64,000 nucleotides of DNA from assembly GCA_037443445.1 (NCBI GenBank), contig JBBIOJ010000003.1:11816-75815 (forward strand). The letters run 5' to 3'. This DNA comes from Desulfarculaceae bacterium. Its GTDB lineage: Bacteria > Desulfobacterota > Desulfocorpusculales > Desulfocorpusculum. A model generated the notes under the pieces. The model ran no database searches. It was given only the letters and a program-made list of their open reading frames with translations, and had not been told where the DNA came from. This document shows, piece after piece, positions 3,695 through 54,903 of this stretch (its first letter is position 1; every line of letters begins with the position of its first letter). The translations under genes were made by a program, and so were the position numbers.

Positions 3695-5557
3695 TCACAG
3701 CTTCCTGGTCCCTGAGAGACCCTCCCACCAGGCCCTTATGCCCAGCCTCTCCAGGGTGGAGGAAAGTGGCCACCCGGTGGAAGGCTCCCATCCCATCTCC
3801 TCGTGGTACACCTTCAGCATCTCCTCCCAACGGGCCATTATGTCCCTGCCCGCTGCAGGACCGTCTTTAGGCACAGAGCCGTAACGCTGGGAAGGACGAA
3901 TTTGTTCCATTCTGAGGCCATGAGAGAGGTTGAAGAGCCTAAGTACATTCACCGCCCTGAGGCCCACCCGGAAGGCGTCTTCCAGGTTGAAGTTCCACCC
4001 TGTCACCGCATTGAAGGCCTTGAGTATGTGAAGGGGGTTCATGCTGGCCAACCTGCAGATGCCCACGCAGTCGTCGAACTGCCTGATGCCGTTGAACCTG
4101 GCGCAGATTCTGGCCACCTCCAGGTGGTCAAAGGGATCCTCCAGTTCCCTCATGCCCAGGAAAGAGGCCTGGATGCCACCGAAGGAGCTCTCTATGGTGG
4201 AGGTGTTGCTCACACAGGTGTCGAAGAGCTCTGTCCAACGCCCCCTGTGGTCGTGCCCCCTGGGGCTGGCTCCTCGCATGGTGTGGATGGCCCACTGGCT
4301 GGTCTCTCCCCCCAGCCTGGTGGCAGCCCTCATGACCCCTTCGGCAAGGAGCTCTCCCAGGAAGCCCTGTCTCCTGGAGATGCGCCCCAGGAGTTCTCTG
4401 ACAGCCTCCACATTCCCCCAGCTCAACTCCAGCCCTTCTGTCTGGGAGGGCTTCAAGACTCCCCTTTCACAGCATTCCATGGCCCATCCCACGCACCAGG
4501 AGGCCTCGTTGCAATCCATGCCCAGCCTGTCCACCTCGTGAGCCAGGACCACTGCCCCGCCGAGATCCGTGTTGCCGATCTGAGGCCCCCAGGCCGCAAG
4601 CTGCTCATATTCCGGCTCCTCTGCTGTAAACCCACTGTAAGGCCCCTCTGTGACAGTGACCTCTTTCACATGGGCCATACGGCACCTGAAGCAGGGCCGG
4701 GACTTGATACGGAAGTGGGTACGCAGGTACTGCCCGTTCATCTTCTCGTGTTCCTGGAAGATGTTGGTGGTGTAGTTGCGAACCGGAAGGGCTCCCTGCC
4801 CGTAGATGGTGGAAAAACCACCTCCTGTGCCCCACCTGTAAAACGGTCCGAATTCCTTCATGAATCCGAAACATTCCAGATCTGCTTTCTTCACCCCTTC
4901 TGGATCAGCCACAGAGAAGCCCCTGGGTGCCCTGTGTGCCACCAAGGCCTTGAGGTTCTTGGCCCCCATCACAGCACCCAGCCCGTTGTGGGCAGCCACG
5001 TGGCCCCCGTCTCCAACTATTGCCGCATAGCGCACCAAGTTCTCCCCAGCCGGGCCTATTGCAAAGACGCTTACCTGAAGTCTCTTGGCTCCGAGCTCTC
5101 TGTGCAGTTCCGCCTCGGTCTCATCCACGGGCAGGCCCCAGAGTCCCGAGGCGTCCTTGAGGGAGGCCCTTCCTTCCTTGATTTCCAGGTATACTGGTCT
5201 GGAAGAGCGTCCCTGCAGGATCACCCCGTCGAATCCCGAGAACTTCATATAGGCCCCCATGAATCCGTTGGCCTGGGAGGAGCCTGCCATCTCGGTCATG
5301 GGGCCCTTGGAAACCACGTTGAAGGTGGCAGCTCCACCAAAGCCAGACCCTCCCAGAGGTCCACAGGTAAATATCAAGCGATTTTCCGGATGGTCCCATG
5401 AGACGGTTGGTCCCACCTCTTCCATCAAGTACTTGGCGCCCAGGGCGACCCCCCCCACCCAAGTCCTGAGATCCTTCTCCAGCAACTCCTCGCTCCAGAT
5501 CTCTCCTCGGCTGAGATCCACCCTGAGCAGCCTGCCTAGATATCCTGGGGGAGCCAT
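3695..5557 (-). CDS. aor: Aldehyde:ferredoxin oxidoreductase (tungsten-containing AOR family)
   Basis: 620 aa. N-terminal GRLLRVDLSRGEIWSEEL matches the AOR N-terminal domain, and there is full-length similarity to tungstopterin AORs. Followed by a MoaD-like gene, as in characterised bacterial aor operons. Confidence 0.85.
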   Translation of the reverse strand: MAPPGYLGRLLRVDLSRGEIWSEELLEKDLRTWVGGVALGAKYLMEEVGPTVSWDHPENRLIFTCGPLGGSGFGGAATFNVVSKGPMTEMAGSSQANGFMGAYMKFSGFDGVILQGRSSRPVYLEIKEGRASLKDASGLWGLPVDETEAELHRELGAKRLQVSVFAIGPAGENLVRYAAIVGDGGHVAAHNGLGAVMGAKNLKALVAHRAPRGFSVADPEGVKKADLECFGFMKEFGPFYRWGTGGGFSTIYGQGALPVRNYTTNIFQEHEKMNGQYLRTHFRIKSRPCFRCRMAHVKEVTVTEGPYSGFTAEEPEYEQLAAWGPQIGNTDLGGAVVLAHEVDRLGMDCNEASWCVGWAMECCERGVLKPSQTEGLELSWGNVEAVRELLGRISRRQGFLGELLAEGVMRAATRLGGETSQWAIHTMRGASPRGHDHRGRWTELFDTCVSNTSTIESSFGGIQASFLGMRELEDPFDHLEVARICARFNGIRQFDDCVGICRLASMNPLHILKAFNAVTGWNFNLEDAFRVGLRAVNVLRLFNLSHGLRMEQIRPSQRYGSVPKDGPAAGRDIMARWEEMLKVYHEEMGWEPSTGWPLSSTLERLGIRAWWEGLSGTRKL

Positions 5558-5719
5558 AGGGAACCTCCTATTGTGGGGTCAGACTCGGATCGGATAGAAG
5601 GTATGAGCCTGGTTGGATGGCATGGAATCCAATGCCGAGAGGGAAAACACCGTGCAACCCAAAGGGCGGGACCGGCCTGATTCCGTCCAAGGAAAGACCT
5701 GGATCCCATGGAAAACTTG

Positions 5720-6946
5720 TCAGGAAAGCGCTGCCTTTTCCTTCCTGTATACGTAGACTGGCTCTTCGTTGCCTGCTATGACCCCCGGGGTGATGACGCA
5801 CTCGGCAAGACCCTGTTGGTCCGGCAGGTTGTACATTATATCCAACATGGCCTTTTCCAAAATGGTCCTAAGCCCTCTTGCCCCGCTTTTTCTCTTGATG
5901 GCCTCCCTGGCCACTGTGAGCAGCGTCTCCTCCAAGAACTCCAGGTGCACACCCTCCAGGTCGAAGAGGGCCTGATACTGTTTCACCAAGGCGTTCTTGG
6001 GCTCCTTGAGGATCCTGACGAGGTGCTCCTCTGAGAGCTCATCCAAGACAGCCACTATGGGCAGGCGGCCCACGAACTCGGGAATCATCCCAAACTCTAT
6101 CAGGTCCTCAGCCCGCACCTCGTGGAGTGGGTAAAGACCCTTGGGGGTTCTATCCTTTTCCGCTCTGAAGCCCAGTGCCCGTTGCTGGATCCGGCTTTGC
6201 ACTATTTTTTCCAAACCCACGAATGTCCCACCGCAAATGAAGAGGATTTGTGTTGTGTCCACCTTGTGGTACTGGCCTTTCATGCCCTTGGGATGGAGGT
6301 GCACAACAGTGCCTTCCAGCATCTTGAGAAGGGCCTGCTGAACGCCCTCCCCGGAGATGTCCCTTCCGTTGGCCGAGTTCACCGTGCGCTTGGCTATCTT
6401 GTCCGCTTCGTCTATGTAAACTATTCCCTGCTGGGCCCGCTCCTCGTCGAAGTCGGCGTTCTCCAGCAAGCGCATGATTATGTCCTCCACGTTCTCTCCC
6501 ACATAGCCCGCTTCGGTGATGGCAGTGGCGTCTGCTATGGCAAAGGGAACCTGAAGGATCTTGGCAAGGGTTTGGGCCAGGAAGGTCTTTCCAGATCCGG
6601 TGGGTCCTATGAGCAGGATGTTGCTCTTTTCCAGTTCCACGCCCTTGAGGGTTTTTCTTGCCTGCAGCCTCTTGTAATGATTGTGCACGGCCACGGCCAG
6701 GGTCTTCTTGGCCTCTTCCTGGCTTATGACGTACTCATCCAGAGCCTTCTTTATGCGAGAGGGCTTTGGAAAACCACCTGTCCGCTCGGCCCTGAACTCC
6801 TCTGCCAATATCTCGTTGCAAATCTGAACGCATTCGTCACAAATAAAGGCCTCTGTTCCCGAGATGAGCTTTCGAACCTCACTCTCGCTCTTGCGACAGA
6901 AGGAACAGTGGAGGCCGAGATCCTCGTCGAACGGTGTCCTCGCCAT
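5720..6946 (-). CDS. clpX: ATP-dependent Clp protease ATP-binding subunit ClpX
   Basis: N-terminal C4 zinc-finger ([27 protein letters not shown]), Walker A (GPTGSGKT) and full-length ClpX similarity. Start taken at MARTPFDE, the second Met of the ORF. No clpP is adjacent. Confidence 0.9.
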
Positions 6947-7063
6947 TAATTGCCCCCCGGCTCCCATGAATATCCGGCTTTGTTCTTGTTATAACACAGC
7001 AGCCCTCCCAAGCAAACCCCTGCTGATTTCTCATCGACCAGTGCAGTGCAGGACTTTAGCTGC

Positions 7064-8986
7064 TCAGAGCAGAACCTTTCCCGACTCGGAAGGGTCGTAC
7101 CCCCCCAGCGCCCGTACCCTTTCCCTGAACTCTTGGCTCCTTATCACCTCCAGGAGCAGTTCTATCCCCTGGGTCTGGAAGAACACCTCCGGGATCACCA
7201 GGTCATATCTCTCTGATTTTACCGGGATGAATTCGAGGCCGAGGGCCTTGGCTGCCGCAAGGATTCCCATTCCAGCATCGGCAGCACCGCTGGCCACTGC
7301 CACTGCCACTGCCATGTGGGTATACTCTTGCTGGTCGTAGCCCTGGATGCTTTTGGGTTCAATGCCCAGCTCCCTCAAATGGAAATCCAGTAGAACCCTT
7401 GTCCCCGAACCTGCCTGCCGATTCATGAAGCGGACTCCCGGGCGTGCCAGGTCTTTGAGTCCTTGAATGCCCAAGGGATTTCCGGGGGCCACCATCAGGC
7501 CCTGCTCTCGGTACACCAGATGAACCATCCTGACCTTCATTCCTTCGAGGTACCGGGCCACATAACTGAAGTTGTAATCCCCTGTTTCCGGATCCAGCAA
7601 ATGGGTTCCGGCCAGATGGGCCTGGCCCTTCCTGACAGCCATCAGCCCGCCCAGGCTACCCACGTTGCTGGATGCCAGCCCGTATCCTGACCCGAGGGCC
7701 CGGAGTCTATCATGTATCAAGTCCAGGGTGAGGTCGTGGCTCCCTATGGCCACAAGGGTTCGACCCAGCTCTTCGGGCCTCCTGAGAAGTTCCACCTCCA
7801 CCTCCTCCCCCTCGGCCACCCCTTCCAGATCCTCTGGAACCCTCAGGATTCCGTCTGCCCTGGTAAGACTGGTTATGGAGCCGGCTGCACGGGGAAGAGC
7901 CGTGGCTGCCATTTGATCCCCTACCTTCCCCAACCTCACCCTCACGAACTCCTCCATGCCTATTCGGGAAGTTATCTTCCTGGAAACCCGGGCTCGAACC
8001 CGGGGCCTGGAGGTGGGATCCACTCCCAGAAGCCTGGCCAGCAAGGGGCCCACTATTTGCTCGCAGGAGACCACGGCCGAGACCGGGTAGCCCGGATTTC
8101 CTATGACCGGCCTTTCCTTCACCACCCCTAGCACCGTAGGCTTCCCAGGCATCATGGAGATGCCGTGAACGAGCACCTCGCCCAGCTCTTCTATCACCTG
8201 GGCTGTCATGTCCTCGGAGCCCGCAGAGGAGCCGGCATTCACCACAACCACATCGAAATCCCCAAGGGCACTTTCCAGGGTGTTCTTGAGTTGCTCCGGG
8301 TCGTCCTTGACAATGGGAAAGCGCACGGCTTCCCCTCCCCACTGCTCCACCAAGGCCCCCAGCACCACGGTGTTGAACTCTATTATCTTTCCCGGGGGCA
8401 GAGCGCCTTGTCTTTCCCAGGCCTCCCATTCCAGGAGCTCCCTGCCTGTGGGGATCAGAGCTACCCTTGGCCTGGGATGCACCCAGAGCCTGGTTACTCC
8501 TGCTGCCAGGAGAGCACCCAGGTCGTAGGGAGTGAGCCTGTGGTTCTGGGGGAGCAGCAGCTCGGTGGCCACTATGTCCTCTCCCACTCGCCTCACGTTT
8601 TGCCATGGATAGGCTGGTCGCTCTATCTGGATCCTGTCCTGATCCAGCTCCACCACATCCTCGATCATGACCACCGCGTTGGTGCCCTGGGGAAGTGGAT
8701 TGCCAGTGTTGACCGGGTGGGCGTTCTGCCCCAGCTTGAGAACCAAAGGTCGGTCTGGGTGGGCTGAATAGGTTTCTTCTGCCCTGAGAGCAAATCCATC
8801 CATGGCTGCCCCGTGGTAAGAGGGAGCCGAAAGCCTGGCAAAGACCCCTTTTGCAGTAACCCTTCCCAGGGCCTGCACAGCCGTCACCTCCTCGGGTTGC
8901 CTCCACCCCCCTACAGGAAACCTCTCCAGGAATATTCTCCTGGCCTCCTCCAGGGAGCGCATCCTGAGATACACGCGACGTCTCAT
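7064..8986 (-). CDS. moeA: Molybdopterin molybdo/tungsto-transferase MoeA fused to a C-terminal periplasmic-binding-protein-like (PBP-like) oxyanion-binding domain
   Basis: N-terminal ~400 aa is MoeA (MDGFALRAEE..., GGVSMG-type region). C-terminal ~230 aa (GLASSNVGSLGGLMAVRKGQAHLAGTHLLDPETGDYN ... ) resembles the PBP-like domain found fused to MoeA. Start taken at MRRRVYL, overlapping the upstream moeA stop (ATGA). Confidence 0.75.
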   Translation of the reverse strand: MRRRVYLRMRSLEEARRIFLERFPVGGWRQPEEVTAVQALGRVTAKGVFARLSAPSYHGAAMDGFALRAEETYSAHPDRPLVLKLGQNAHPVNTGNPLPQGTNAVVMIEDVVELDQDRIQIERPAYPWQNVRRVGEDIVATELLLPQNHRLTPYDLGALLAAGVTRLWVHPRPRVALIPTGRELLEWEAWERQGALPPGKIIEFNTVVLGALVEQWGGEAVRFPIVKDDPEQLKNTLESALGDFDVVVVNAGSSAGSEDMTAQVIEELGEVLVHGISMMPGKPTVLGVVKERPVIGNPGYPVSAVVSCEQIVGPLLARLLGVDPTSRPRVRARVSRKITSRIGMEEFVRVRLGKVGDQMAATALPRAAGSITSLTRADGILRVPEDLEGVAEGEEVEVELLRRPEELGRTLVAIGSHDLTLDLIHDRLRALGSGYGLASSNVGSLGGLMAVRKGQAHLAGTHLLDPETGDYNFSYVARYLEGMKVRMVHLVYREQGLMVAPGNPLGIQGLKDLARPGVRFMNRQAGSGTRVLLDFHLRELGIEPKSIQGYDQQEYTHMAVAVAVASGAADAGMGILAAAKALGLEFIPVKSERYDLVIPEVFFQTQGIELLLEVIRSQEFRERVRALGGYDPSESGKVLL

Positions 8987-10212
8987 GGAAAGCTCTCCAC
9001 CTCCACCCAATCTCCGCTATAGAGCCCTTCGCAAAGAGGATCGATCCGGATCAATCCATCCGCCCTGGAAAGATTCCCTATGAGACCCGAGGAGCCCAGC
9101 AAGGGACGGGCCCAGAGTTCCCCTTGCCTTTGTTCCAGGGCCACCCTCACATAATCCTCTCTGCCCTGGGCTGAGGCCAGGTTTCTGGTGAGCCTTGCCC
9201 GAAAAGGTCTGGGTCTGTTGATGTAGCTTCTTCCGCAAATTCTGTCCAACAAGGGCCTTCCCAAGAGATGGAGGATCACCAGAGCTGAGACCGGATGTCC
9301 AGGGAGTCCCAAGAAGGGTTTCCCACCCACCTCTGCCACCAAAGTGGGTTTGCCCGGCCTCACTGCAAGACCATGGGCCAGCACCTCAGCACCCGGCAAT
9401 GCCTGGAGGGCCTCCATGAGAAAATCCCTGGTACCGACTGAGCTTCCCCCCGAGACTATTACCGCATCGGCCGTCTCCAGGGCTTCCCTGAGGGCTTTGG
9501 AGAGCTGCTCCAGCCGGTCCGGAATTATTCCCATGGGGAGGGCTATTGCGCCCTCCAGGTTCACCCAGGAACAAACGGAGACCCCATTTACATCCCTTAC
9601 CTGGCCCGGAGCAGGCTCCGTGTGGACAGGCACCACTTCGTCCCCAGTGGAAAACACGGCCACCGATGGCTTTCGGTAAACCCAAAGCCTGGTTGTCCCC
9701 AGAGCCCCCAGGATCCCCAGATCCTGGGGCCTCAAGCTCCATCCCGAGGGCAGCACCTCCTGGCCTGCAGAGACGTCCTCCCCGGGTCTCACCACGTTCT
9801 CCCATGGAGCCACGCTCCTGTACACCTCCAGGGTTTCCGAGTCCAGTTGCTCTGCATGCTCTATCATGACAACAGAGTCCGCGCCTTCCGGCAGCATGGC
9901 GCCGGTGGCCACCCGCACGGCCTCCGAACCCCTCAGGGTCATCTGGGCGGGCTCCCCCATGCGCACTTCGCCCACTAGGCGAAGCAGGGCAGGCAGCCCC
10001 TCGCTGGCTCCAAAAGTGTCTTGGGCCTTTACAGCAAAGCCGTCCATGGTAGCACGCGGGAAACCCGGCAGGTCTTCCTTCGCCACCACCGTCCTGGAAA
10101 GCACTCTGCCCAGGGCATTCCAAAGCTCCACTTCCTCTTCCCCCGCCGGGGAAAATCTTTGGAATTCGGCCACCACCTCCTGGCGGCTTCTCACCCTGAA
10201 GAAGCGGATCAC
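8983..10212 (-). CDS. moeA: Molybdopterin molybdo/tungsto-transferase MoeA (second paralog)
   Basis: 409 aa with full-length MoeA similarity (ATMDGFAVKAQD, GAMLPEGADSVVMIE, GGSSVGTRD). In tandem with the MoeA-PBP fusion gene. Confidence 0.85.
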   Translation of the reverse strand: MIRFFRVRSRQEVVAEFQRFSPAGEEEVELWNALGRVLSRTVVAKEDLPGFPRATMDGFAVKAQDTFGASEGLPALLRLVGEVRMGEPAQMTLRGSEAVRVATGAMLPEGADSVVMIEHAEQLDSETLEVYRSVAPWENVVRPGEDVSAGQEVLPSGWSLRPQDLGILGALGTTRLWVYRKPSVAVFSTGDEVVPVHTEPAPGQVRDVNGVSVCSWVNLEGAIALPMGIIPDRLEQLSKALREALETADAVIVSGGSSVGTRDFLMEALQALPGAEVLAHGLAVRPGKPTLVAEVGGKPFLGLPGHPVSALVILHLLGRPLLDRICGRSYINRPRPFRARLTRNLASAQGREDYVRVALEQRQGELWARPLLGSSGLIGNLSRADGLIRIDPLCEGLYSGDWVEVESFP

Positions 10213-13432: not shown

Positions 13433-14293
13433 ATGGGGATCCTGTGCAGGGCGGGCCTCATCTTCTGGTTTTGCCTTTTTGGAGTGGCCCGGGAGACTTG
13501 GGCTGACTGGCCCGAGCAGCCTTTGATAGAGAGGCTCACAGACGGCTCCAGGATGGGCCTCAGCAGGCTCACCTCGGAACTCAGGGGAAGTCCATTTGTG
13601 CTGGTGGGGGAGCTTCATGAGGAGCCCGAGCACCACAGGGCTCAGTTGATGCTCATCAGGGCGCTTTGGGAGGCCAAGGTGCCCTTGGCCATAGGCATGG
13701 AGATGTTTCGACAGGATGCACAGGAAGCCCTGGACAGCTGGACCAGGGGGGGGCTCTCCGAGGAGGAAATGGAGCAGATCTTTGGGCAGAACTGGGCCGA
13801 GACCTCCTGGCTCCTGTACCGGGACATACTGCTCTTTGCCAGGGAGAAATCCATTCCTGTCTTGGGGTTGAACCTGCCCAGGGAGATCACCCAGAAGGTG
13901 GCCTCCGGGGGTTATGCGAGCCTGCCTGAGGAGATGAAAAAGCACTGGGGGGAGGTGTCCTGCGACCTCCAGGAGCCCTACAGGAGCTTTGTGCACTGGG
14001 CCTTTGAGGCCCACGGGGACAGCAAGGAGGAGAGTTGGGAGAATTTCTGCCAGGCCCAGATCCTCTGGGATACGGCCATGGCCGTAAGACTTCTGGATTA
14101 TCGGGAAGCAAATCCCCAGACCACCATCGTGGTCCTGACAGGGGTGGGACATGCCTGGATGCACGGGATCCCGCAAAGGATAACCCAGCGCTCATACTTG
14201 CTCTGCAGGGTGATCCTCCCGGATCTGCAAGGAAGACTAAAGCAGGGTAAACTGGGGACCGAGGACGCCGACTATCTTTGGCTTAGGTATTGA
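13433..14293 (+). CDS. ChaN-family (Cofac_haem_bdg/DUF399) protein, Tiki/TraB/GumN superfamily, secreted
   Basis: ATG at 13433, 5 nt after the slp stop. Signal-peptide-like N-terminus. Motifs LVGELHEEPEHHRAQL, LAIGMEMF, NWAETSWLLYRDILLFARE, PVLGLNLPREI and GVGHAW match ChaN-family conserved blocks. Confidence 0.7.
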   Translation: MGILCRAGLIFWFCLFGVARETWADWPEQPLIERLTDGSRMGLSRLTSELRGSPFVLVGELHEEPEHHRAQLMLIRALWEAKVPLAIGMEMFRQDAQEALDSWTRGGLSEEEMEQIFGQNWAETSWLLYRDILLFAREKSIPVLGLNLPREITQKVASGGYASLPEEMKKHWGEVSCDLQEPYRSFVHWAFEAHGDSKEESWENFCQAQILWDTAMAVRLLDYREANPQTTIVVLTGVGHAWMHGIPQRITQRSYLLCRVILPDLQGRLKQGKLGTEDADYLWLRY

Positions 14294-15009
14294 TTGTCCG
14301 GCCGGCTCACCAAAGGGAGCCTGGGACCGAGGGAAATTCCCTCGGGGCTGACCAATGCCGTGTAAGCCCAGATTTCCACCCCCATCTCCAGGGCCTTCCA
14401 GAAAAGTTCCGCGTACCTCGGATCCACGAAGTCGGCTGGGGCAAAGCAGCGGGCGTCCTGGCGCTGTACCAGGTAAAAACACGCTGCCCTCTCCCCTTCG
14501 GCTGCAAGGGCCATGAGTTTTTGAAGGTGGCGTTGACCCCTTTGAGTCACGGCGTCAGGGAAGTAGGCCACATCATATTCCACCAGGGTGACATTCTTGG
14601 CCTCGATCCAAAGACGCTTCCCAGGAGAACTCAGAAGTGCGTCTATCCTGTTTTCACCCACCTGCACCTCGGGGTAGAATTTGCCGTACCCGTGTGCTTC
14701 TGGCAGAAGCCCTCGCTCCCAGGCTCTCCTGAGGACTCGGTTGGGGGTGAGGGTATTGATTCCGACCCAGGTGCTGTTGGAGCGCACCAGCTCCAGGGTG
14801 TAAGGAAACTTCCTCCCGGGCCTCTGGGCAGGCGAAGCAATCACCCGGTTTCCAGGCCTCAGCAGGCCCATCATGCTCCCGGAATTGTTGCAGTGGACCC
14901 AGAAGCTTCCTGCTCTTGCCTCCACCTCCACAAGAAACCTCTTCTCCCTCCTTATGAACTTGCCCCTTAGTACACCCTGGGGGAAAACAACCAGATGCTC
15001 CTGGCTCAC
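14272..15009 (-). CDS. sfsA: Sugar fermentation stimulation protein A (SfsA) family
   Basis: Similarity to SfsA along the ORF (KFIRREKRFLVEVE, VHCNNSGSMMGLL, YFPDAVTQRGQRHLQKLMALAAEG). The ORF as tracked (to 15135) would overlap the upstream thioredoxin-like gene; a GTG at about 15009 aligns with the SfsA N-terminus. Start uncertain. Confidence 0.7.
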   Translation of the reverse strand: MSQEHLVVFPQGVLRGKFIRREKRFLVEVEARAGSFWVHCNNSGSMMGLLRPGNRVIASPAQRPGRKFPYTLELVRSNSTWVGINTLTPNRVLRRAWERGLLPEAHGYGKFYPEVQVGENRIDALLSSPGKRLWIEAKNVTLVEYDVAYFPDAVTQRGQRHLQKLMALAAEGERAACFYLVQRQDARCFAPADFVDPRYAELFWKALEMGVEIWAYTALVSPEGISLGPRLPLVSRPDNQYLSQR

Positions 15010-15080
15010 AGGCTCCAATCCCTTCCCTTTGAAATAATAATCCGCCCCCCAATGCTCACGGGCAAGGGGGGCGGGCGCTC

Positions 15081-15656
15081 TTAGTTTATCAGCCTGTACG
15101 GCTGGGCTCTCTTGGCCCATTCGCTGCTCGGCCACTTCCTCTGGAGCTCCTCATAGGCCTCCCTGAGATGTTTTGGCTCGTGGGTATGCTTGTAAAGGGC
15201 CACCCCCTTCAGGAACATGGCCTCAGCAGCCGCGTCACTGCCGGGATGATGCTCCAGGATGCCCTCAAGGGCCGAGACGGCCTCCTGGAAGCGTCCGGCA
15301 TCAAAATGCACCTTGGCTATGCCCAGCCAGCCCGAGGGCACAAACTCCTCCGGGGGTAGAAAGCCTACTGTCCTGTGGTGCTCCTTCCCATCGGTGTCCA
15401 GGGTAACCAGGGTAGGAGTCCACTGCAGATTGAAGTCCCTGGCAAGGGGTTGGGTGTCGAAGCTAACCCTCAGCCCCACGAAATTCTGGTTTACGAAATC
15501 TCTGACAGTTTCCTTGGGATACGTGACCGCATCCATCTGCTGACAGCCAATTCAACCGGGGTTGAAAAAATCCAGGAGCACGGGCTTTTTCTCCTGCCTG
15601 GCCCTCTGAAGGGCCCTTTCCCAACTGGTTTCCCAGAGGATGCTCTCGCTGGCCAT
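15081..15656 (-). CDS. Thioredoxin-fold protein with UxxC redox motif, putative selenoprotein (in-frame TGA Sec codon at 15552-15554), with C-terminal TPR-like region
   Basis: Two same-frame ORFs (15552..15827 and 15081..15536) are separated only by a TGA. Read-through gives ...KPVLLDFFNPG-U-IGCQQMDAVTYP..., i.e. the stop sits exactly where the first Cys of a thioredoxin CxxC would be. Strong SD (AAGGAGGG) 5 nt upstream of ATG at 15656 (MASESILWETSW...). A 7-bp stem/GUCA-loop hairpin begins 17 nt downstream of the UGA. Confidence 0.75.
15517..15534 (-). promoter_or_regulatory. Putative bacterial SECIS-like hairpin (GGAUGCG-GUCA-CGUAUCC) downstream of in-frame UGA
   Basis: Perfect 7-bp stem (one G-U pair) with a GUCA apical loop. 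Starts 17 nt 3' of the UGA, which places the apical loop about 24 nt from the UGA. Consistent with the spacing and loop G/U features of bacterial SECIS elements. Confidence 0.5.
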
Positions 15657-16061
15657 GGTTTCCCTCCTTACAAGAAAGCTCCTGTCCGACTCCTCCATTG
15701 AGGCCCAGAACACCCGGGACTCAAGCCCCTCATACTCTTTAAGGATACTTTCAATATAACCCTGCCCCAACCCTCGCAAAGCAAAAAAACGTGTTCTGCT
15801 TTGACACCCTTGTGCTGCTTTGGGCATATGAGGCTCTCAGCCTGAACCATTAAGCCCTCAAGAGAAAGCCGGCCCAAATAGAACTACCTCAGTATGGAGT
15901 CCCTGCTCCTATCATTCAATACAAAACCTCGAAATCAGGCTTATCCATCCAAGAAAGGCACAAGCAGGCCCAGGCTCCCCCTTCTTGGGGGTCCCCAGGG
16001 GTCCTGGCTCCAATTCTTTGCCACCTTTCCCATTGCTCCAGAACAATACGGGGCAGAGGGC

Positions 16062-17817: not shown

Positions 17818-17878
17818 ATTGTCCCACTCGGGGAATGGGAGAAAAACCATCGCCTTCAGGCAAAGACTTTGGTCCCCG
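17818..17878 (+). repeat. Copy A of a conserved ~60-nt element (ATTGTCCCACTCGGGgaATGGGAGAAaAACC...CTTTGG) in the carB 5' leader
   Basis: About 80% identical to copy B at 21152-21210. Contains the inverted repeat TCCCA-N9-TGGGA and an ATGGGAGAA(A/G)AACC mini-ORF start. Confidence 0.6.
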
Positions 17879-17914
17879 CTCAGGGAGTCAGCAATTCATG
17901 TGGGGGGCTTTGCC

Positions 17915-20900
17915 ATGCCGAAGCGCACCGATATCAGCAACGTCATGATCATAGGTTCCGGGCCCATAGTGATAGGCCAGGCATGCGAGTTCGACTATTC
18001 CGGAACACAGGCTTGTAAAGCCTTGAGGAGACTGGGATATAGGATAGTACTTGTGAATTCCAATCCTGCCACGATCATGACGGATCCGGGAATGGCCGAC
18101 ATTACTTACGTGGAACCTCTCACCCCGGAAGCCTTAGAACAAATCATTCAAAAAGAGAAACCCGATGCCATACTGCCCAATTTGGGAGGGCAGACAGGAT
18201 TGAACCTGACATCCGAGCTTCACAGAAGAGGGGTTTTGGAAAAGTACGGGGTCAAGGTCATAGGCGTTGCCGTGGATGCAATAGAAAGAGGGGAGGACAG
18301 GATAGCATTCAAACAGACAATGGCGCGTCTCAATATAGATGTACCCAGGAGCGAGCCTGCCTACACGATTGAAGAAGCGCTTCGAATAGCGGAAAAGTTG
18401 GGCTATCCGGTGGTTGTTCGCCCGGCTTACTGTTTGGGTGGAACAGGGGGGGGGCTTGGTTTACAACGTAGAGGAACTGAAGGTCGTGGCAGCCAGAGGT
18501 CTAAGTGCCAGCATGGTAGGGCAGATTCTGGTAGAGGAGTCCGTTGAGGGCTGGGAGGAGCTGGAGCTGGAAGTTGTGAGAGACGCCAAGAATCAGATGA
18601 TCACCGTCTGCTTCATAGAGAACGTGGATGCCATGGGAGTGCATACTGGCGACTCCTTTTGCGTGGCACCCATGCTAACCATAGATCCTGAGCTGCAACA
18701 AAGACTCCAGAAGCACTCCTACAATATCGTGGAGGCCATCAAGGTCATTGGGGGAACAAATATCCAGTTCGCCCACGACCCCAAGACAGGACGGCTGGTG
18801 GTAATAGAGATAAACCCCAGAACCTCAAGGTCTTCCGCCTTGGCCTCCAAGGCCACGGGTTTTCCCATCGCTTTCGTATCTTCCCTATTGGCGGCTGGAC
18901 TCACCCTTGACGAAATTCCCTATTGGAGAGAAGGCACCCTGGATAAGTACACCCCCTGCGGGGATTACGTGGTGGTGAAATTCGCCAGATGGGCTTTCGA
19001 GAAGTTCAAGGATGCTCATGACAGGCTTGGGACTCAGATGCGGGCGGTAGGGGAGGTCATGAGCATAGGGAAGAATTACAAAGAGGCCCTTCAAAAGGCC
19101 ATCCGCTCCCTGGAGATAGGCCGGCACGGGCTTGGCTTTGCAAAGGATTTCCACCTCCGAGGTCTGGAAGAACTAATGGACATGCTCTCTGAGCCAACCA
19201 GTGAGAGGCAGTTCCTGATGTACGAGGCCCTCAGAAAAGGTGCCTCGGTAGAAGCGCTTTACAGAAAAACTTACATCAAGCCTTGGTTTATAGAGCAGAT
19301 GAAGGAACTGGTGGAGTTGGAGGAAATGCTCCTTAAGTTCAAAGGGAAGGAGGTTCCTGATGAACTCCTGAGACGGGCCAAGAAAGATGGTTTTTCTGAC
19401 AAGTACCTATCTAAGTTGCTAGGGACTCCCGAGTTGGAGATACGCGAAAAAAGGAAGGCCGTTGGGGTTGTTCAAGGTTACGAAGCAGTGCCTGTAAGCG
19501 GGGTGGAGAAGGGAGCTTACTATTTTCCCACCTATAACGCCCCCGATGCGGTCCCGGTCAGCTCCAGACCCAAGGTGATGGTCTTGGGCGGAGGCCCCAA
19601 CCGAATAGGTCAGGGGATAGAGTTCGACTATTGTTGCGTGCACGCAGCCTTCGCCCTTAAAGACGAGGGGTACGAAGCCATCATGGTGAACTGTAATCCC
19701 GAGACCGTCTCCACCGACTACGACACCTCGGACCGCCTGTACTTTGAGCCTCTTACAGGAGAGGACGTTCTAGGTGTTTACGAAAAGGAGAAACCTCAAG
19801 GGGTCATAGTACAGTTCGGGGGGCAGACTCCCCTTAACATTGCAAGAGAGCTAGCCGAGCAGGGAGTCCGAATATTGGGCACTTCCTACGAGTCCATAGA
19901 TTTGGCTGAGGACAGGGACCGGTTCAGGCAAATGATGAGCAGACTGGGCATACCACAGCCCGCCTCGGGCATGGCCAGTTCTATGAGTGAAGCCCTGGAA
20001 GTGGCAAACAAAATAGGTTACCCCCTCATGGTCCGCCCATCCTATGTTTTGGGAGGCCGGGGCATGGAAGTTGTCCATGACCGCGCAATGTTGGAAACAT
20101 ACGTTGCAGAGACTGTGGGTGTCACACCCGAACGTCCCATTCTGATAGACAGGTTCTTGGAGGATGCCATCGAGGCGGAGGCCGATGCCATATCAGACGG
20201 AAAGGAGGCCTTCGTGCCTGCTGTGATGGAGCATATAGAGTTGGCCGGGATTCATTCCGGGGACTCTGCCTGCGTTATACCCCCGGTGAGCATTCCTCCA
20301 AAGCACATGGAGACGATCCAAGAATATACCCGCCGCATAGCCGTAGAACTAAATGTGGTGGGCCTCATGAACATACAGTACGCCATATACCGAGACACGG
20401 TTTTCGTGCTGGAGGCCAATCCCCGAGCTTCCAGAACAGTGCCTCTGGTGTCAAAGGTTTGCGGCATCCCCATGGCAAGACTAGCCACCAACGTGATGAT
20501 GGGGAAACGTATCTCGGAGTTCCCCCTCCAGCTCCCCAGAATAGCTCACTACGGGGTTAAGGAATCGGTTTTCCCTTTCAACATGTTTCCGGAGGTGGAT
20601 CCGGTGCTGGGCCCGGAGATGCGCTCCACGGGAGAAGTGTTGGGCTTGGCCGAGTCTTTTGGCCTAGCCTTTTACAAGTCCCAGGAGGCGGCCCAGCAAC
20701 GGTTGCCTCTCAAAGGCACAGTGCTCATCACCGTGTCGCCTCAGGACAGGCCCGCAGTGCTGGAGGTGGCCAGGCGTTTCCAGGACCTGAACTTTCGCAT
20801 CCTGGCCACCCAGGGCACTCAGAGTTTCTTGGCCGAGCACTCCATCAAAGCCGAGCGAATCCTGAAGATGCACGAGGGAAGGCCTAACATAATAGATGGG

Positions 20901-21119
20901 ATAAAGAATGGAGATATTCAACTGGTCATAAACACCCCTAGTGGGAAGCTGAGCTCCTATGACGACTCCTACATTCGAAAGGCAGCTATCCGCTATAGAG
21001 TGCCCTACATTACGACTCTGGCGGCTGCCATGGCGGCGGCAAAAGGAATCGAGGCCTGTCTGGAGAAGAATTGGTCTGTGAGATCTCTCCAAAGCTTTCA
21101 TCGTGGGGAAGAGGCTTAG
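17915..21119 (+). CDS. carB: Carbamoyl-phosphate synthase large subunit CarB, reading frame interrupted by a +1 frameshift in a G9 homopolymer (18446-18454)
   Basis: N-terminal part ([30 protein letters not shown]...[15 protein letters not shown]) is in the 17819 frame. The remainder ([11 protein letters not shown]... to ...FHRGEEA) is in the 18414 frame. The two join cleanly if one G of the G9 run is removed. Combined length is about 1068 aa, typical for CarB. Confidence 0.85.
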
Positions 21120-22900: not shown

Positions 22901-23854
22901 TCAGTCGTATGCGGTCCCCCTCAGTTCCTCCACATACCTGGCTGCAGCCCGGGCGGCCGTGGCTCCGTCCCCACAGGCAGTGACAACCTGCCGCAGCAGC
23001 TTGCGCCGGGCGTCCCCGCAGGCAAAGACCCCTGGCAAAGATGTGCGCATGTCCTCGTCGGTGAGGATGTAGCCTCTCTGGTCCATTTCCACCAGGCCTT
23101 TGAGAAAAGCCGTGTTGGGGACCATTCCCACGAAAATGAAAACCCCGGAGCAGGGTTTTTCCCACCTGCGGCCCGAGGGCAACTCCCTGATCCTGACGCC
23201 TTGCACTCCCTGGGCCCCGCCCTCTATGGCTTCCACCACGGAGTTCCACACGAATTCCATCTTGGGATTTGAAAGGGCCCTTTGCTGTACAACAGGTGAT
23301 GCCCTGAGCCTGTCCCTGCGGTGGATGAGTGTGACCCTGGAGGCCATCTTGGTCAGGTAAGTGCCTTCCTCCACGGCGGTGTCCCCTCCTCCCACCACTA
23401 CCACCTCCTGGTCTCTGAAAAAAGGGCCGTCGCACGTTGCGCAGTAAGAAACCCCTCTGCCCCTGAATTCCTCCTCCCCAGGCACTCCCAGACGGTTCCA
23501 GTCAGCCCCCATGGCCAGTATCACGGCTCTTGCATGCTGAATTCCCTCGCTGCTCACCAGCTGGAAAGACTTGGGCTCACCTTCCATGACCCGTAGGGCC
23601 TGAACATCACCCTGGAGCACCTGTAGCCCGAACTTCCTGGCCTGTTGCTCCATGCGCTGCGAGAGCTCGATGCCCGAGACCCCATCCGGAAATCCAGGGT
23701 AGTTCTCCACCCACTCGGTGGTGGCCACCTGCCCGCCTGAAACCATGCGCTCCAAGAGAAGCGTTTTCATGGCGTCGCGCACAGCGTACAGACCCGCAGT
23801 CAGCCCTGCCGGGCCACCCCCCACTATGACTATGTCCCACAGGATTTCAGACAC
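22901..23854 (-). CDS. trxB: Thioredoxin-disulfide reductase TrxB
   Basis: DIVIVGGGPAGLTAG FAD motif, redox-active CATCDG, and a second (NADPH) Rossmann motif. 317 aa. Confidence 0.9.
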   Translation of the reverse strand: MSEILWDIVIVGGGPAGLTAGLYAVRDAMKTLLLERMVSGGQVATTEWVENYPGFPDGVSGIELSQRMEQQARKFGLQVLQGDVQALRVMEGEPKSFQLVSSEGIQHARAVILAMGADWNRLGVPGEEEFRGRGVSYCATCDGPFFRDQEVVVVGGGDTAVEEGTYLTKMASRVTLIHRRDRLRASPVVQQRALSNPKMEFVWNSVVEAIEGGAQGVQGVRIRELPSGRRWEKPCSGVFIFVGMVPNTAFLKGLVEMDQRGYILTDEDMRTSLPGVFACGDARRKLLRQVVTACGDGATAARAAARYVEELRGTAYD

Positions 23855-23899
23855 CTCCCGGTTCTCCTCCCACCTGGGAAACCTTCAACGGGTGTCCCC

Positions 23900-24229
23900 T
23901 TACAGGGCCTTCTGGAGCATGGCCTCTATCTGGCCCTTTGGCACAGCTCCCACTATCTGGTCCACAGCCTCTCCGTTCTTGAACAAAATAAGAGTTGGAA
24001 TTCCGCGTATTCCGTACTTGCCTGGGGTCACGGGATTGTTGTCAACGTTCATCTTGGCCACCTTGATGCGGCCTTGATACTGCTGTGCCAGTTCCTCCAC
24101 AATGGGGCCCACAACCCGACAAGGCCCACACCAGGGAGCCCAGAAATCCACCAACACGGGGGTAGAGGACTGTAAGATCTCCGCCTCAAAACTGGCGTCA
24201 CTCAGCTCTGTCAAATTTTCGGCTGCCAT
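23900..24229 (-). CDS. trxA: Thioredoxin TrxA
   Basis: WAPWCGPC active site and typical thioredoxin fold. 109 aa. Confidence 0.9.
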   Translation of the reverse strand: MAAENLTELSDASFEAEILQSSTPVLVDFWAPWCGPCRVVGPIVEELAQQYQGRIKVAKMNVDNNPVTPGKYGIRGIPTLILFKNGEAVDQIVGAVPKGQIEAMLQKAL

Positions 24230-43443: not shown

Positions 43444-44571
43444 GTGCAACAGCAAGCGGTTCGTGTTGTGAAAACCTATAGCATAGTCGTCCTGCCTGGG
43501 GATGGAATAGGACCTGAAATCGTAGAGGCTGCCTTGGAGGTCCTGGACACTCTTCAAGAAGTTCTAGGGGAATTTAGGCTTTCCTATCAGATTCATAGAG
43601 CCGGGGCCAGCCTTTATCAGGAGACGGGGGTGCCCATCGGAAAAGAGGCCATTGAGGCCTTTCGGGACTGCCGCGTTGCTCTCAAAGGCCCGGTCGGGCT
43701 CCCCACGGTTCGTAAGCCTGATGGTACCGAGGCGGGGCTTCTGGGGGGAATCCTGAGATGCGGATTCGATCTCTACGCCAATGTGAGACCCATCTGCCTT
43801 CTTCCCAAGGTGCCCGGCCCATTGGCCGGTATCACCCCCGAAGGGCTGGATTACGTGATCGTAAGGGAGAACACAGAAGGTCTGTACCTCTCCCGGGGGC
43901 TGGGATTGGTGACACCGCAGGCAGCAACGGACACCATGCTTATGACCGCCGTGGGGTGTGAAAGAATAGCCCGATTCGCCTTCCGTACGGCCTTGATGAA
44001 GAGGCGGGGGGCTCCAGAGGACGGCAAGAAAAGAGTCACACTCGTTGACAAGAGCAATGTTCTTAGATCTTTCGCCTTTTTCAGGAAGATCTACTTGAAA
44101 ATAGCCGAGGAGTTCCCAGAGGTGGAAGCGGAGTGCATGTACGTGGATGCGGCCTGCGCAGCACTGGTTAGTCGCCCGGGCCATTTCCAGGTGATCGTGA
44201 CCGAGAATCTCTTCGGAGATATACTTAGCGACCTCGGGGGGGCAACGGTGGGAGGGCTTGGCTTTTGTCCCTCTGGGAATATAGGGGAGACCCACGCATA
44301 CTTCGAACCAATCCATGGCTCGGCCCCGGACATAGCGGGCCGCGGGCTCGCAAACCCAACGGCCCAGATTCTTTCGGCCGCCATGATGCTGGATTACTTG
44401 GGAGAGCAGCGTGCGGCCGAGATGTTGCGCAATGCAGTTAGGAGGGTCTGGGCCGAAGCTCCACTGAGGCTGGAGGCAGGAGGGTGGGTCATAGGAGGAG
44501 CGCAGAGCGTGACCAGGGCAATAAGAGAGATGCTCCTTGCGGCCGAAGAGGGCGCCCATGAGATCCGCTGA
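43444..44571 (+). CDS. Isocitrate/isopropylmalate dehydrogenase-family protein (tartrate/D-malate or NAD-isocitrate dehydrogenase-like)
   Basis: SIVVLPGDGIGPEIVEAALEVLD N-terminus and conserved family blocks. 375 aa. Substrate not assignable from sequence. Confidence 0.7.
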   Translation: MQQQAVRVVKTYSIVVLPGDGIGPEIVEAALEVLDTLQEVLGEFRLSYQIHRAGASLYQETGVPIGKEAIEAFRDCRVALKGPVGLPTVRKPDGTEAGLLGGILRCGFDLYANVRPICLLPKVPGPLAGITPEGLDYVIVRENTEGLYLSRGLGLVTPQAATDTMLMTAVGCERIARFAFRTALMKRRGAPEDGKKRVTLVDKSNVLRSFAFFRKIYLKIAEEFPEVEAECMYVDAACAALVSRPGHFQVIVTENLFGDILSDLGGATVGGLGFCPSGNIGETHAYFEPIHGSAPDIAGRGLANPTAQILSAAMMLDYLGEQRAAEMLRNAVRRVWAEAPLRLEAGGWVIGGAQSVTRAIREMLLAAEEGAHEIR

Positions 44572-45976
44572 AGACCAACTCGTAGACCTGGAAAAGGAGT
44601 ATGGGGTTGTGGTGGTAGGAGGGGGCAACGCGGCTCTCTGTGCGGCCATGACGGCCCGGGAAACAGGAACCAGCGTACTGCTTCTGGAGTGCTCCCCCAA
44701 GGAGTTCAGGGGGGGCAACAGCCGCCACACCCGTAACTTGAGATTTCTTCACGAAGGCCCCACCTCCTACCTCACAGATGCGTACCTCGAGGATGAGTTT
44801 TGGGAAGACCTTATGTTGGTAACAGAGGGACAGACAACAGAACACTTGGCAAGACTCACCATTCGGGAGTCCAGGAATCTGGGGGAATGGATGGAGGCCC
44901 ACGGCTGTGTGTTCCAGCCCCCTTTGCGGGGAACCCTTCATCTATCCAGAACCAACGCCCATTTCCTGGGAGGGGGAAAGGCTCTCGTGAACGCTTACTA
45001 TGCCAGGGCCCTGAAAATAGGGGTGCGGGTTCTCTACGGGGCGGAGGCCAGGAGCATAGAACTTCTCGAAGGGAAGTTCTCCTCCCTGGTCGTGCGGCAC
45101 AACGGCTCTGAGCACCGCATCAAAGCAAAGGCCGCGGTCATGGCCTCAGGGGGTTTCCAGGCAGATCTCGGCTGGTTGAGGCAGTACTGGGGGGATGCGG
45201 CCGAGAATTTCCTCATCCGAGGCACGCCTTTCAACAGAGGCCATATGCTCAGAGCGCTTCTAGCTCTCGGCGCCAAGCCTGTCGGGGATCCCCGCCAGTG
45301 CCATGCCGTGGCCATAGACGCAAGAGCCCCCAAATTCGACGGAGGCATTGTGACAAGGCTGGATTGCGTGCCATTTGGCATCGTGGTGAACCGGGATTGC
45401 CGCCGCTTTTACAACGAAGGGGAGAACTTCTGGCCCAAGCGTTACGCCATATGGGGGAGACTGGTGGCCCAGCAACCCGGACAGATAGCGTACTGTCTCA
45501 TTGATTCCAAATCATTGAACCTGTTCATGCCGTCTGTGTTTCCACCCCTTGAAGCCAATTCCATAGGGGAACTGGCCCGAAACCTGGGGCTGGACCCCCG
45601 AGCTCTGGAAAATACTGTCAGAACTTACAACGCAGCTGTCCGCCCGGGCAGGTTCGATCCCACTGCCTTGGATGATTGCCACACCGAGGGCTTGGAGCCT
45701 GAGAAGACTCACTGGGCTCGCCCCTTGGATTCACCTCCCTTTTACGGCTATCCTTTGAGGCCCGGGATCACCTTCACATATCTCGGAGTCACGGTAGACG
45801 ATCGGGCCCGGGTGATCCTCCAGGACAATCAGCCGCTGCCCGGCATCATGGCTGCAGGGGAGATAATGTCAGGGAACATCCTGGGGAAAGGATACCTGGC
45901 TGGGTTCGGGATGACAATCGGAACAGTTTTCGGTCGGATAGCGGGAAGGGAGGCTGCACTTTATGCCCGCGGATGA
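44558..45976 (+). CDS. tcuA: FAD-dependent tricarballylate dehydrogenase TcuA
   Basis: VVVVGGGNAALCAAMTARE FAD motif and full-length TcuA-like organisation. Overlaps the downstream tcuB. Confidence 0.75.
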   Translation: MRSAEDQLVDLEKEYGVVVVGGGNAALCAAMTARETGTSVLLLECSPKEFRGGNSRHTRNLRFLHEGPTSYLTDAYLEDEFWEDLMLVTEGQTTEHLARLTIRESRNLGEWMEAHGCVFQPPLRGTLHLSRTNAHFLGGGKALVNAYYARALKIGVRVLYGAEARSIELLEGKFSSLVVRHNGSEHRIKAKAAVMASGGFQADLGWLRQYWGDAAENFLIRGTPFNRGHMLRALLALGAKPVGDPRQCHAVAIDARAPKFDGGIVTRLDCVPFGIVVNRDCRRFYNEGENFWPKRYAIWGRLVAQQPGQIAYCLIDSKSLNLFMPSVFPPLEANSIGELARNLGLDPRALENTVRTYNAAVRPGRFDPTALDDCHTEGLEPEKTHWARPLDSPPFYGYPLRPGITFTYLGVTVDDRARVILQDNQPLPGIMAAGEIMSGNILGKGYLAGFGMTIGTVFGRIAGREAALYARG

Positions 45977-47066
45977 CCTGCTCAGGGAAGCTCAGCGAGT
46001 GATGACCATCTGCAATGCCTGCAGATACTGCGAGGGATTCTGCGCGGTATTCCCGGCCATGGAGCTCAGGAGGGTCTTTGCGCCCCGGGACCTGAAGTAC
46101 CTTGCCAACCTATGCCACAACTGCCGGGGCTGCTATTACGCATGCCAGTACGCTCCTCCGCACGAGTTCATGCTAAACGTTCCCAAGACCCTAGCTCAAC
46201 TGCGGCGGGAGACTTACAAGGAGTTCGTGAGGCCTTCGGCCCTGGGCCGGTTGTTCGAGAAAAACGGCAGAGTTTTGGCATTGCTCACAGCAGGGTGTCT
46301 GCTTCTGGCCCTGGGTCTCACCTTGGGGTTTCAGCCCAGGGAACTGGTTCTGGGCGTACATCAAAGGGAAAGGGCGTTTTACAAGGTGATACCCTACGAA
46401 TTTATGGTGTGGCCCTTCTTGGCTGTGGGTTGTGCAGTTTCGGTTTTCCTGATAAACGGGATCATCTCCTTTTGGAGAGGCATTGGGGGGCGACCGAGAG
46501 AGTTGTGGGATTGGGCCGCGAACCTGAGGGCTTTGGGAGATGCGCTAAAGCTGACCTATCTGGGTGGAGGGGGGCAGGGGTGTAATTATCCTGACGAGAG
46601 TTTCAGCAACGCTCGCAGGTGGCTCCACCAGACTGTGTTTTACGGGTTTTTCCTGACGGGGGTCTCAACGGCTTTGGCGGCCTTCTACGACCACTTCCTG
46701 GGGAGAATGGCTCCTTATCCCTTCTGGAGCTGGCCAGTGGTGCTTGGCGGCCTGGGAGGATTGGGAATCATGGCCGGGGGCCTTGGGCTGCTATATCTGA
46801 AAGCCAAGGTGGACCGGGCTCCAGCCGATGAGGGAGCCTTAAGCATGGACATCGGTTTCACGGTCTTGCTGCTCTTGACTGCCTTAAGCGGAATCCTGCT
46901 CTTGCTTTTCAGGGACACCCGGGCCATGGGGCTTCTGCTGGCAGTACACTTGGGCTTTGTAGGGGCTTTTTTCCTGAGTTTACCCTGCGGCAAGTTTGTG
47001 CATTCAGTATATCGTTACGCGGCCTTGGTGCGAAACGCCCAGGAGAGAATACGGGAAGGGAAATAG
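45963..47066 (+). CDS. tcuB: Tricarballylate utilization protein TcuB (membrane Fe-S electron-transfer protein)
   Basis: N-terminal Cys clusters (CNACRYCEGFCAVFP; CHNCRGCYYACQYAPPH) followed by TM helices, as in TcuB/CitB. Confidence 0.75.
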   Translation: MPADDLLREAQRVMTICNACRYCEGFCAVFPAMELRRVFAPRDLKYLANLCHNCRGCYYACQYAPPHEFMLNVPKTLAQLRRETYKEFVRPSALGRLFEKNGRVLALLTAGCLLLALGLTLGFQPRELVLGVHQRERAFYKVIPYEFMVWPFLAVGCAVSVFLINGIISFWRGIGGRPRELWDWAANLRALGDALKLTYLGGGGQGCNYPDESFSNARRWLHQTVFYGFFLTGVSTALAAFYDHFLGRMAPYPFWSWPVVLGGLGGLGIMAGGLGLLYLKAKVDRAPADEGALSMDIGFTVLLLLTALSGILLLLFRDTRAMGLLLAVHLGFVGAFFLSLPCGKFVHSVYRYAALVRNAQERIREGK

Positions 47067-47222
47067 CTGCTGGGATTTCAGCAGCAAGGCAAAGGGTACC
47101 GTACGGTACCAAGGCTTTTGAGATCCACTGAGGGTTGCTTTGAAACGGACAGCTTGGGTGGGTCTGATCCGACTCAAGGGAACAATAAACAGACCTGATC
47201 ACGCTTAGGATGGGATGGAAAC

Positions 47223-49157: not shown

Positions 49158-49187
49158 GAAAAGGGGAGAACCCCCATTGGAGAAACC

Positions 49188-50402: not shown

Positions 50403-50555
50403 AAGGGGTGGGTCAGCTCAACCTGCGGGGCCACAGAGGGTTGACATGGGCACTGGGTTTTTCCCATACTCCCCGGCGGGGAATCCCGGGGCTGCAAGGG
50501 CAAAAAGGAAAGTCTTTGAGGGCGGCCGGAGCCTGGTTAGGCCTGGCCACACCGA

Positions 50556-51539: not shown

Positions 51540-51580
51540 GCTCGCACAAGAGCTGTCTCGGGCCCCAAGCGTTTCTCAGA

Positions 51581-52087: not shown

Positions 52088-52102
52088 GGGGAACTTTGAC
52101 CC

Positions 52103-54749: not shown

Positions 54750-54903
54750 GGATCCAGACCTCCCTTTCCCTGGGAGCTTGCCAGATGGCATCCCCTTCCC
54801 GGAGTCTGCCCCGGCCACCCGGCTCTTCAGGGCCCGGAGGGTTCGCCAAGGCTGTGCGATCCTGTCCGCTGGAAGGGCCGGGCCAGTATCTTATTGCAAT
54901 TTT

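Follow-up and report, generated by a model that had tools for sequence, protein, structure and literature searches.

In a minus-strand gene of a Desulfarculaceae bacterium, an in-frame TGA at positions 15554-15552 most probably encodes selenocysteine (Sec), an assignment to which we give a probability of about 0.88. The gene lies in a 64,000-nucleotide (nt) stretch of contig JBBIOJ010000003.1 (assembly GCA_037443445.1), which is referred to as the window and by whose positions all coordinates are given, and its full-length product would join a thioredoxin (Trx) fold to a C-terminal region of tetratricopeptide repeat (TPR) type. On the minus strand, a single frame runs from an ATG at 15656-15654 to a TAA at 15083-15081, and the TGA is its only interruption. 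The complete selenoprotein gene (15081..15656) has the read-through translation MASESILWETSWERALQRARQEKKPVLLDFFNPG-U-IGCQQMDAVTYPKETV…PYRLIN, which comes to 191 residues including Sec, one more than the 190 of the original prediction made from the letters of this stretch. A mechanical list of open reading frames (ORFs) breaks the gene into two same-frame minus-strand pieces, 15552..15827 (91 residues) and 15081..15536 (151 residues); as that prediction had observed, and as sequence and translation agree, they are parted by one TGA and 15 nt, and reading through gives …KKPVLLDFFNPG before the TGA and IGCQQMDAVTYPKETV… after it. The predicted Sec codon (15552..15554, minus strand) specifies residue 35, the nucleophilic first position of a UxxC motif, while Cys38 (TGT, 15543..15545, minus strand) is its resolving second residue. 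In an alignment of 81 sequences (A2), the Cys38 codon (columns 19-21) has invariant first and second bases and either T or C at the third.

Relatives of the gene share the TGA. A protein search returned 1199 homologues, and most of the best 120, which we inspected, are entries of 150-151 residues that begin at the Met right after the TGA and are therefore cut at the same place. A genome scan limited to one genome per species found 282 relatives, from which the best 80 loci, each from a different species, were kept; in 80 of 80, TGA stands at the same column and the protein is conserved on both sides (…LLDFFNPG before the TGA, IGCQQMDAVTYP… after it). The codon takes the place of the first Cys in a thioredoxin CxxC motif (…LLDFFNPG-U-IGCQQMDAVTYP…), as originally proposed, and homologues have TGA or Cys there, with Cys found in the more distant ones. 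By record title, the kept loci comprise Thermodesulfobacteriota, "delta proteobacteria", Ca. Brocadia, Ca. Jettenia, Nitrospirota, Thermodesulfovibrionia and a few metagenome-assembled genomes (MAGs) under other labels, and the closest genome match is an uncultured Desulfarculaceae MAG with 82% identity.

An exhaustive profile search widened the comparison to 160 representatives (clustered at 50% identity) below 1e-30, and the top 150 were classified: 45 are full-length with CxxC, ~55 start at the post-TGA Met, and the remainder include SxxC (7), CxxS (5) and "WxxC" (3) forms. The family thus displays the classic pairing of Sec and Cys at a catalytic position. Full-length entries carry Cys or "W" at the column, and the "W" entry P0009 (locus L087, a 966-nt Logan SRR23614663 contig) has TGA in its DNA. 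Metagenome calls with "W" at the Sec position (P0007-P0010, P0016, P0019-P0021, P0206, P0254 and P0296) come from contigs of mostly ~1 kb or less, for which the gene caller apparently picked a TGA=Trp code owing to the selenoprotein gene itself. Some distant members (P0154, P0162, P0167, P0169, P0194, P0225, P0258, P0291 and others) have lost either the first redox residue (SxxC-like, ExxC, NxxC) or the second (CxxS), suggesting that these lineages may use a single Cys or be redox-inactive.

Directly downstream of the TGA is a predicted bacterial selenocysteine insertion sequence (SECIS) hairpin (15517..15534, minus strand), composed of a 5' arm GGAUGCG (15534-15528), a loop GUCA (15527-15524) and a 3' arm CGUAUCC (15523-15517). 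The hairpin overlaps the codons for (M)DAVTYP and starts 17 nt after the UGA, which with the 7-nt 5' arm makes 24 nt from UGA to loop. Folding energies are -10.4 kcal/mol for the 23-nt hairpin alone and -17.2 kcal/mol for a 71-nt region. Comparison was based on alignment A2, whose 81 sequences include 77 distinct ones, and RNAalifold returned the hairpin helix as the only consensus structure. The original prediction had described a 7-bp stem at this spot; its position and the window's own stem were confirmed, but the form conserved in the family is a 6-bp stem with a hexaloop N-G-U-N-W-C, the seventh pair of the window being present in 31 of the 77 distinct sequences. At pair 32-45, these 77 sequences have A-U (65), G-C (6), G-U (2) or a broken pair (4), and the G-C version is compensatory, with an Asp to Gly change (GAT to GGT) accompanied by a silent TAT to TAC. 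Pair 34-43 varies by one-sided changes (G-U in 66, A-U in 10 and G-C in 1), four of the seven stem pairs never vary, and loop positions G37 and U38 are invariant in all 81 sequences. Within the stem, all 77 distinct sequences agree at the third-codon positions (T in GAT/GGT/GCT, G in ACG/TCG), whereas four-fold sites just outside it are nearly random (entropy 1.6-1.9 bits). Invariant synonymous sites in the stem set against variable flanks, along with the compensatory pair, indicate that RNA as well as protein is probably under selection here, and the claim of a SECIS-compatible hairpin gains a conserved, covarying element with constrained synonymous sites.

The element also agrees with the bacterial SECIS (bSECIS) consensus of the bSECISearch model (Zhang and Gladyshev 2005), for which PMC13188914 gives a summary. 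The constraints stated there (Fig. 2 legend) are a loop of 3-9 nt and a stem of 4-16 bp, a G at one of the loop's first two positions with G or U next to it on the 3' side, a spacing of 16-37 nt, and a minimum free energy of -7.5 kcal/mol or lower. The hairpin lies within all four: loop and stem measure 4 nt and 7 bp in the window (6 nt and 6 bp in the family consensus), the loop contains GU, the spacing is 24 nt, and the energy is -10.4 kcal/mol. Like the consensus, it is a stem-loop within the coding region just 3' of the UGA whose small apical loop has G and then U. Compared with the Escherichia coli fdhF SECIS, the window's loop G-U would be ~5 nt further from the UGA and its stem is without an evident bulged U. 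No Rfam family matched the element: neither the whole window at the gathering threshold nor 15400-15700 at a permissive E-value gave a SECIS-type hit, only noise, and we treat this result as uninformative.

Five Cys-form loci were compared: L085 and L088 still have the hairpin, L083 and L086 have a weakened one, and L081 has none. Relaxed constraint after old replacements of Sec by Cys would fit this pattern, though the sample is too small to decide. Locus L088 (L088:3001-3700; GCA_936417715.1, CAKYVR010000394.1) is a close Cys form (TGC) with a full SECIS-like hairpin of -10.8 kcal/mol, and its gene has an internal deletion or frameshift with ~70 residues gone; the appearance is that of a decaying or misassembled gene that recently exchanged Sec for Cys.

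Though the original prediction spoke of a "less-described" Trx-TPR family, the protein has a known home. The "Thiol:disulfide interchange protein" family (pfam13098, UxxC; reference WP_011366075.1 from Geobacter metallireducens) is listed in current reviews, which credit it to the prokaryotic selenoproteome study of Kryukov and Gladyshev (2004), where it was predicted. In 2006, the family was recorded from three genomes (Geobacter metallireducens, G. uraniumreducens and Syntrophus aciditrophicus). The 190-residue reference sequence is printed in file 3 of the deep-Sep supplement (PMC12013277) and reads MAQIEWITSLAEGLSMAGRENRLVLLDFFNPGUIGCKQMDAVAYP…KWTPT…EHYRTLGF…PYKLLKR. In a BLASTP comparison, the window protein aligned with WP_011366075.1 over 185 residues without gaps (44% identity, E 9e-61), Sec on Sec, and by this homology the window gene can therefore be placed in an already described selenoprotein family. 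The two proteins are also alike in length (191 and 190 residues), in the common motif LLDFFNPG-U-IGC-x-QMDAV-x-YP, and in an architecture of thioredoxin followed by a helical C-terminus; the window protein differs in coming from another lineage and in lacking a selenoprotein annotation, neither of which is a difference in kind. Four marks of the family were found in it, namely homology to the reference, the pfam13098 domain, UxxC at the reference Sec column, and homologues with TGA and with Cys.

What the TGA does was weighed against three other explanations. In one, it is a true stop, leaving a 34-residue N-terminal peptide and a separate 151-residue TPR protein initiated at ATG 15536, 15 nt downstream. 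Public gene calls are just such fragments, homologues are named "tetratricopeptide repeat protein" with 150 residues, and the ATG follows the TGA closely. Against this, the five codons between TGA and ATG (IGCQQ) are conserved as protein while their synonymous sites vary freely, so they are translated; a protein from Met41 would have a thioredoxin fold stripped of its first strand and active site; homologues of the Cys form run uninterrupted over ~190 residues; and the internal ATG has no Shine-Dalgarno sequence 5' of it. We consider termination at this codon very improbable. Still less credit is due to the notion that the TGA arose by nonsense mutation in a pseudogene now decaying, or that faulty sequencing or assembly put it there. 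Homopolymer errors probably do occur in the assembly, at least once (a G9 run at 18446-18454 throws carB out of frame), but the TGA is outside any homopolymer. All 80 of the independent species genomes have it at this column, with both flanks under purifying selection, which rules out an error there and makes the probability of this explanation negligible.

Read-through that inserts another residue, either because a near-cognate or suppressor tRNA supplies Trp, Cys or Gly or because UGA is reassigned, is improbable too, though slightly less so than a true stop. It could draw on the failure to find Sec machinery within the 64-kb window and on the W that some metagenome gene callers put at this column in homologues. 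Those calls, however, come from ~1 kb contigs, and the one checked (P0009, L087) has TGA in its DNA. A mechanical scan for UGA as a sense codon gave 250 TGA-split candidates in the window, none convincing, so UGA is not generally reassigned. The column is also that of the catalytic Cys of CxxC, with Cys in more distant homologues; the loop G-U and spacing of the hairpin are typical of SelB-dependent SECIS elements; and G. metallireducens, the host of the reference member, is an established Sec user with SelD and FdhA selenoproteins.

Several observations count against the assignment of Sec, or against the function attached to it. None of selA, selB, selD or tRNA-Sec was found within the 64-kb window, and the Sec-decoding trait of the host is assumed: ARAGORN reported only a tRNA-Ser(GCU) in the window, Pfam searches of nearly all window ORFs of at least 150 residues gave no SelA, SelB or SelD, tblastn with a SelD sequence had no match in the window or any fetched locus, and tRNA scans of 60 related loci gave no tRNA-Sec. 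The 71-nt region of this one sequence folds no better than shuffled versions (z = -0.5; 60 of 200 fold as well), and the case for the hairpin therefore rests on the comparison across sequences described above. A review grades the family as "predicted with high confidence" and not as experimentally verified. The biochemical role is proposed by domain similarity alone. Gene neighbourhoods are not conserved (the largest cluster of neighbours spans 9 of the 80 loci) and thus point to no pathway.

Sequence and model comparisons agree on a two-domain protein, in line with the earlier proposal of a thioredoxin fold and a TPR-like C-terminal region. The thioredoxin-fold domain spans approximately residues 8-105 (15342..15635, minus strand), as placed by Pfam, NCBIfam, a sequence search of the Protein Data Bank (PDB), and an AlphaFold (AF2) model of a Cys homologue with Foldseek. 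In Pfam, it matched Thioredoxin_2 (PF13098; 54.4 bits, E 1.8e-14), Thioredoxin_7 (46 bits) and DsbH/DUF255 (34.7 bits), each against a cutoff of 27. Approximately residues 108-185 form a helical TPR region (15102..15335, minus strand), identified by TPR_14 (32.9 bits against a cutoff of 23.5), TPR_16, PDB 6g5s and the model. It resembles the TPR domains of both BamD and CpoB/YbgF, and the match to the latter (PDB 6g5s) has an E of 5.5e-9. The AF2 model, built for the full-length Cys homologue P0022 (pLDDT 92, pTM 0.87), has a thioredoxin fold followed by six helices that span 101-188.

The closest thioredoxin domains in the PDB by sequence are 2kuc, a Bacteroides Thioredoxin_7 protein, and DsbD gamma (1uc7, 2fwe), with E of 7e-10 to 1e-7. 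The CxxC of these domains aligns with U-I-G-C, and the TGA falls at the first Cys of 2kuc. The family's historical name probably goes back to this likeness. DsbD itself is a membrane-bound electron transporter of ~570 residues that acts in the periplasm and has three domains (alpha, transmembrane beta and gamma), whereas the window protein is soluble, has a TPR tail, and is without a membrane or alpha domain. Membership in DsbD was rejected, given that only the gamma-like thioredoxin domain matches, that NCBIfam PRK00293 scored 40 bits against a cutoff of 330, and that the protein has 191 residues. No NCBIfam model reached its cutoff for the window protein; the best was TsoB (50 bits against 805), which we rejected together with VPGUxxT type 1 (25.8 against 275), VPGUxxT type 2 (14.5 against 350) and Trx7/PDZ (21.1 against 300).

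The top two-domain Foldseek match of the P0022 model was the chaperedoxin YbbN/CnoX of E. coli (PDB 3qou), which resembles the window protein in having an N-terminal thioredoxin fold, then a C-terminal TPR, and no signal peptide. The two differ in domain arrangement and sequence family, and the window protein is ~95 residues shorter. With a TM-score of 0.40, an rmsd of 11.7 Å and 14% identity, CnoX/YbbN membership was rejected and the resemblance taken as one of architecture only. E. coli YbbN is not known to have a CxxC motif. By analogy, the resemblance suggests how a Trx-TPR protein might work, with the TPR serving as a platform for clients or partners.

If the TGA encodes Sec, a complex of SelB, GTP and Sec-tRNA(Sec) would bind the loop G-U of the hairpin, 24 nt 3' of the UGA, and insert selenocysteine instead of allowing termination. 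In the protein, the U35-I-G-C38 motif would carry out thiol/selenol-disulfide exchange, in which Sec35 is the nucleophile that attacks and Cys38 the residue that resolves. Attack of Sec35 on substrate disulfides would form a mixed selenenylsulfide for Cys38 to resolve, and the oxidised selenenylsulfide would then be re-reduced, probably by thioredoxin or another thiol system. The TPR domain may recruit a protein partner or the substrate. The window also contains a thioredoxin reductase-like gene (22904-23854, minus strand, Pyr_redox_2, 317 residues) adjoining a 109-residue thioredoxin (23903-24229, minus strand). This canonical trxA-trxB pair (22904-24229), 7-9 kb from the selenoprotein gene, could be an electron source, with nothing linking the two.

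A bolder idea, which we regard as speculative and rather unlikely, extends the comparison with CnoX. The Trx-TPR selenoprotein might serve anaerobes specifically as a cytoplasmic "seleno-chaperedoxin" with a function analogous to that of CnoX, its TPR holding clients while Sec35 forms and resolves mixed selenenylsulfides, and the strict Sec form in Ca. Brocadia, Ca. Jettenia, Nitrospirota and Thermodesulfobacteriota might then mark an unrecognised and important redox-maintenance function, and use of Sec, in these groups.

A Shine-Dalgarno-like AAGGAGGG (15662..15669, minus strand), read from the sequence, lies 5 nt 5' of the ATG, and full-length homologues begin at the Met equivalent to ATG 15656, both as expected under the start site originally chosen. 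A 57-codon upstream extension of the ORF (15657..15827, minus strand) is therefore most likely leader, and we regard it as probably non-coding. Directly 3' of the stop codon is a terminator-like element (15032..15074, minus strand), a G+C-rich hairpin (15074-15042) followed by AUUAUUAUUU, which folds at -26 kcal/mol (z = -3.2) and as well as which none of 200 shuffles fold. A strong hairpin of this kind, with AUUAUUAUUU, immediately after the stop makes the gene look monocistronic. A consensus terminator scan did not list the 15032-15074 element, whose loop, with an inner 3-bp helix, exceeds that scan's rule of 3-8 nt. The N-terminus of the protein shows no sign of a signal peptide or a membrane segment, and for lack of a predicted signal peptide its location is presumed to be cytoplasmic. 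The neighbouring mechanical ORF for SfsA (14275-15135, minus strand, 287 residues, GTG start) runs ~60 codons 5' of the SfsA domains, reaching across the terminator-like hairpin into the 3' end of the selenoprotein gene; because of this overlap, the true sfsA start is probably further downstream.

Public databases present the gene in pieces, as the original prediction had expected: the calls for this contig are 91 and 151 residues long, and the 91-residue upstream fragment is a separate protein entry of NCBI origin (P0298), placed on the 183,709-nt contig. The correct annotation would be one selenoprotein of 191 residues where there are now a fragment of 91 and a "TPR protein" of 151. Homologues across public databases suffer from the same error, and the named close homologues we inspected are called hypothetical, "tetratricopeptide repeat", "TolA-binding" or "thioredoxin-related" proteins, none a selenoprotein. 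A dedicated family model together with the highly conserved SECIS sequence would correct these entries. Neither the recoding mechanism nor the family is new, and no new category is opened; the added value is modest and lies in the broader extent of the family and the misannotation of its members. The family extends far beyond the size and taxonomic range given in reviews, and it is widespread, nearly always with Sec, among Thermodesulfobacteriota, Nitrospirota and anammox Planctomycetota. This distribution suggests that the protein may have a conserved redox role in anaerobes.

Other parts of the window yielded minor observations. The carB gene (17819-21116, plus strand), for the large subunit of carbamoyl-phosphate synthase, changes frame at the nine-G run (18446-18454) and so appears as two overlapping ORFs, and removing one G restores the frame; the split is probably a homopolymer error of sequencing or assembly, not biology. 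The region 43444-54818 contains genes for an FAD-binding oxidoreductase (44537-45973), aconitase, isocitrate/isopropylmalate dehydrogenase, TctC/TctA transporter components and PrpF, and looks like a tricarboxylate utilisation cluster. In 3698-10212 (minus strand), an aldehyde:ferredoxin oxidoreductase gene is found near two MoeA-type molybdopterin/tungsten cofactor genes, of which one carries a fused periplasmic-binding-protein-like domain; the grouping suggests maturation of a tungsten or molybdenum enzyme.

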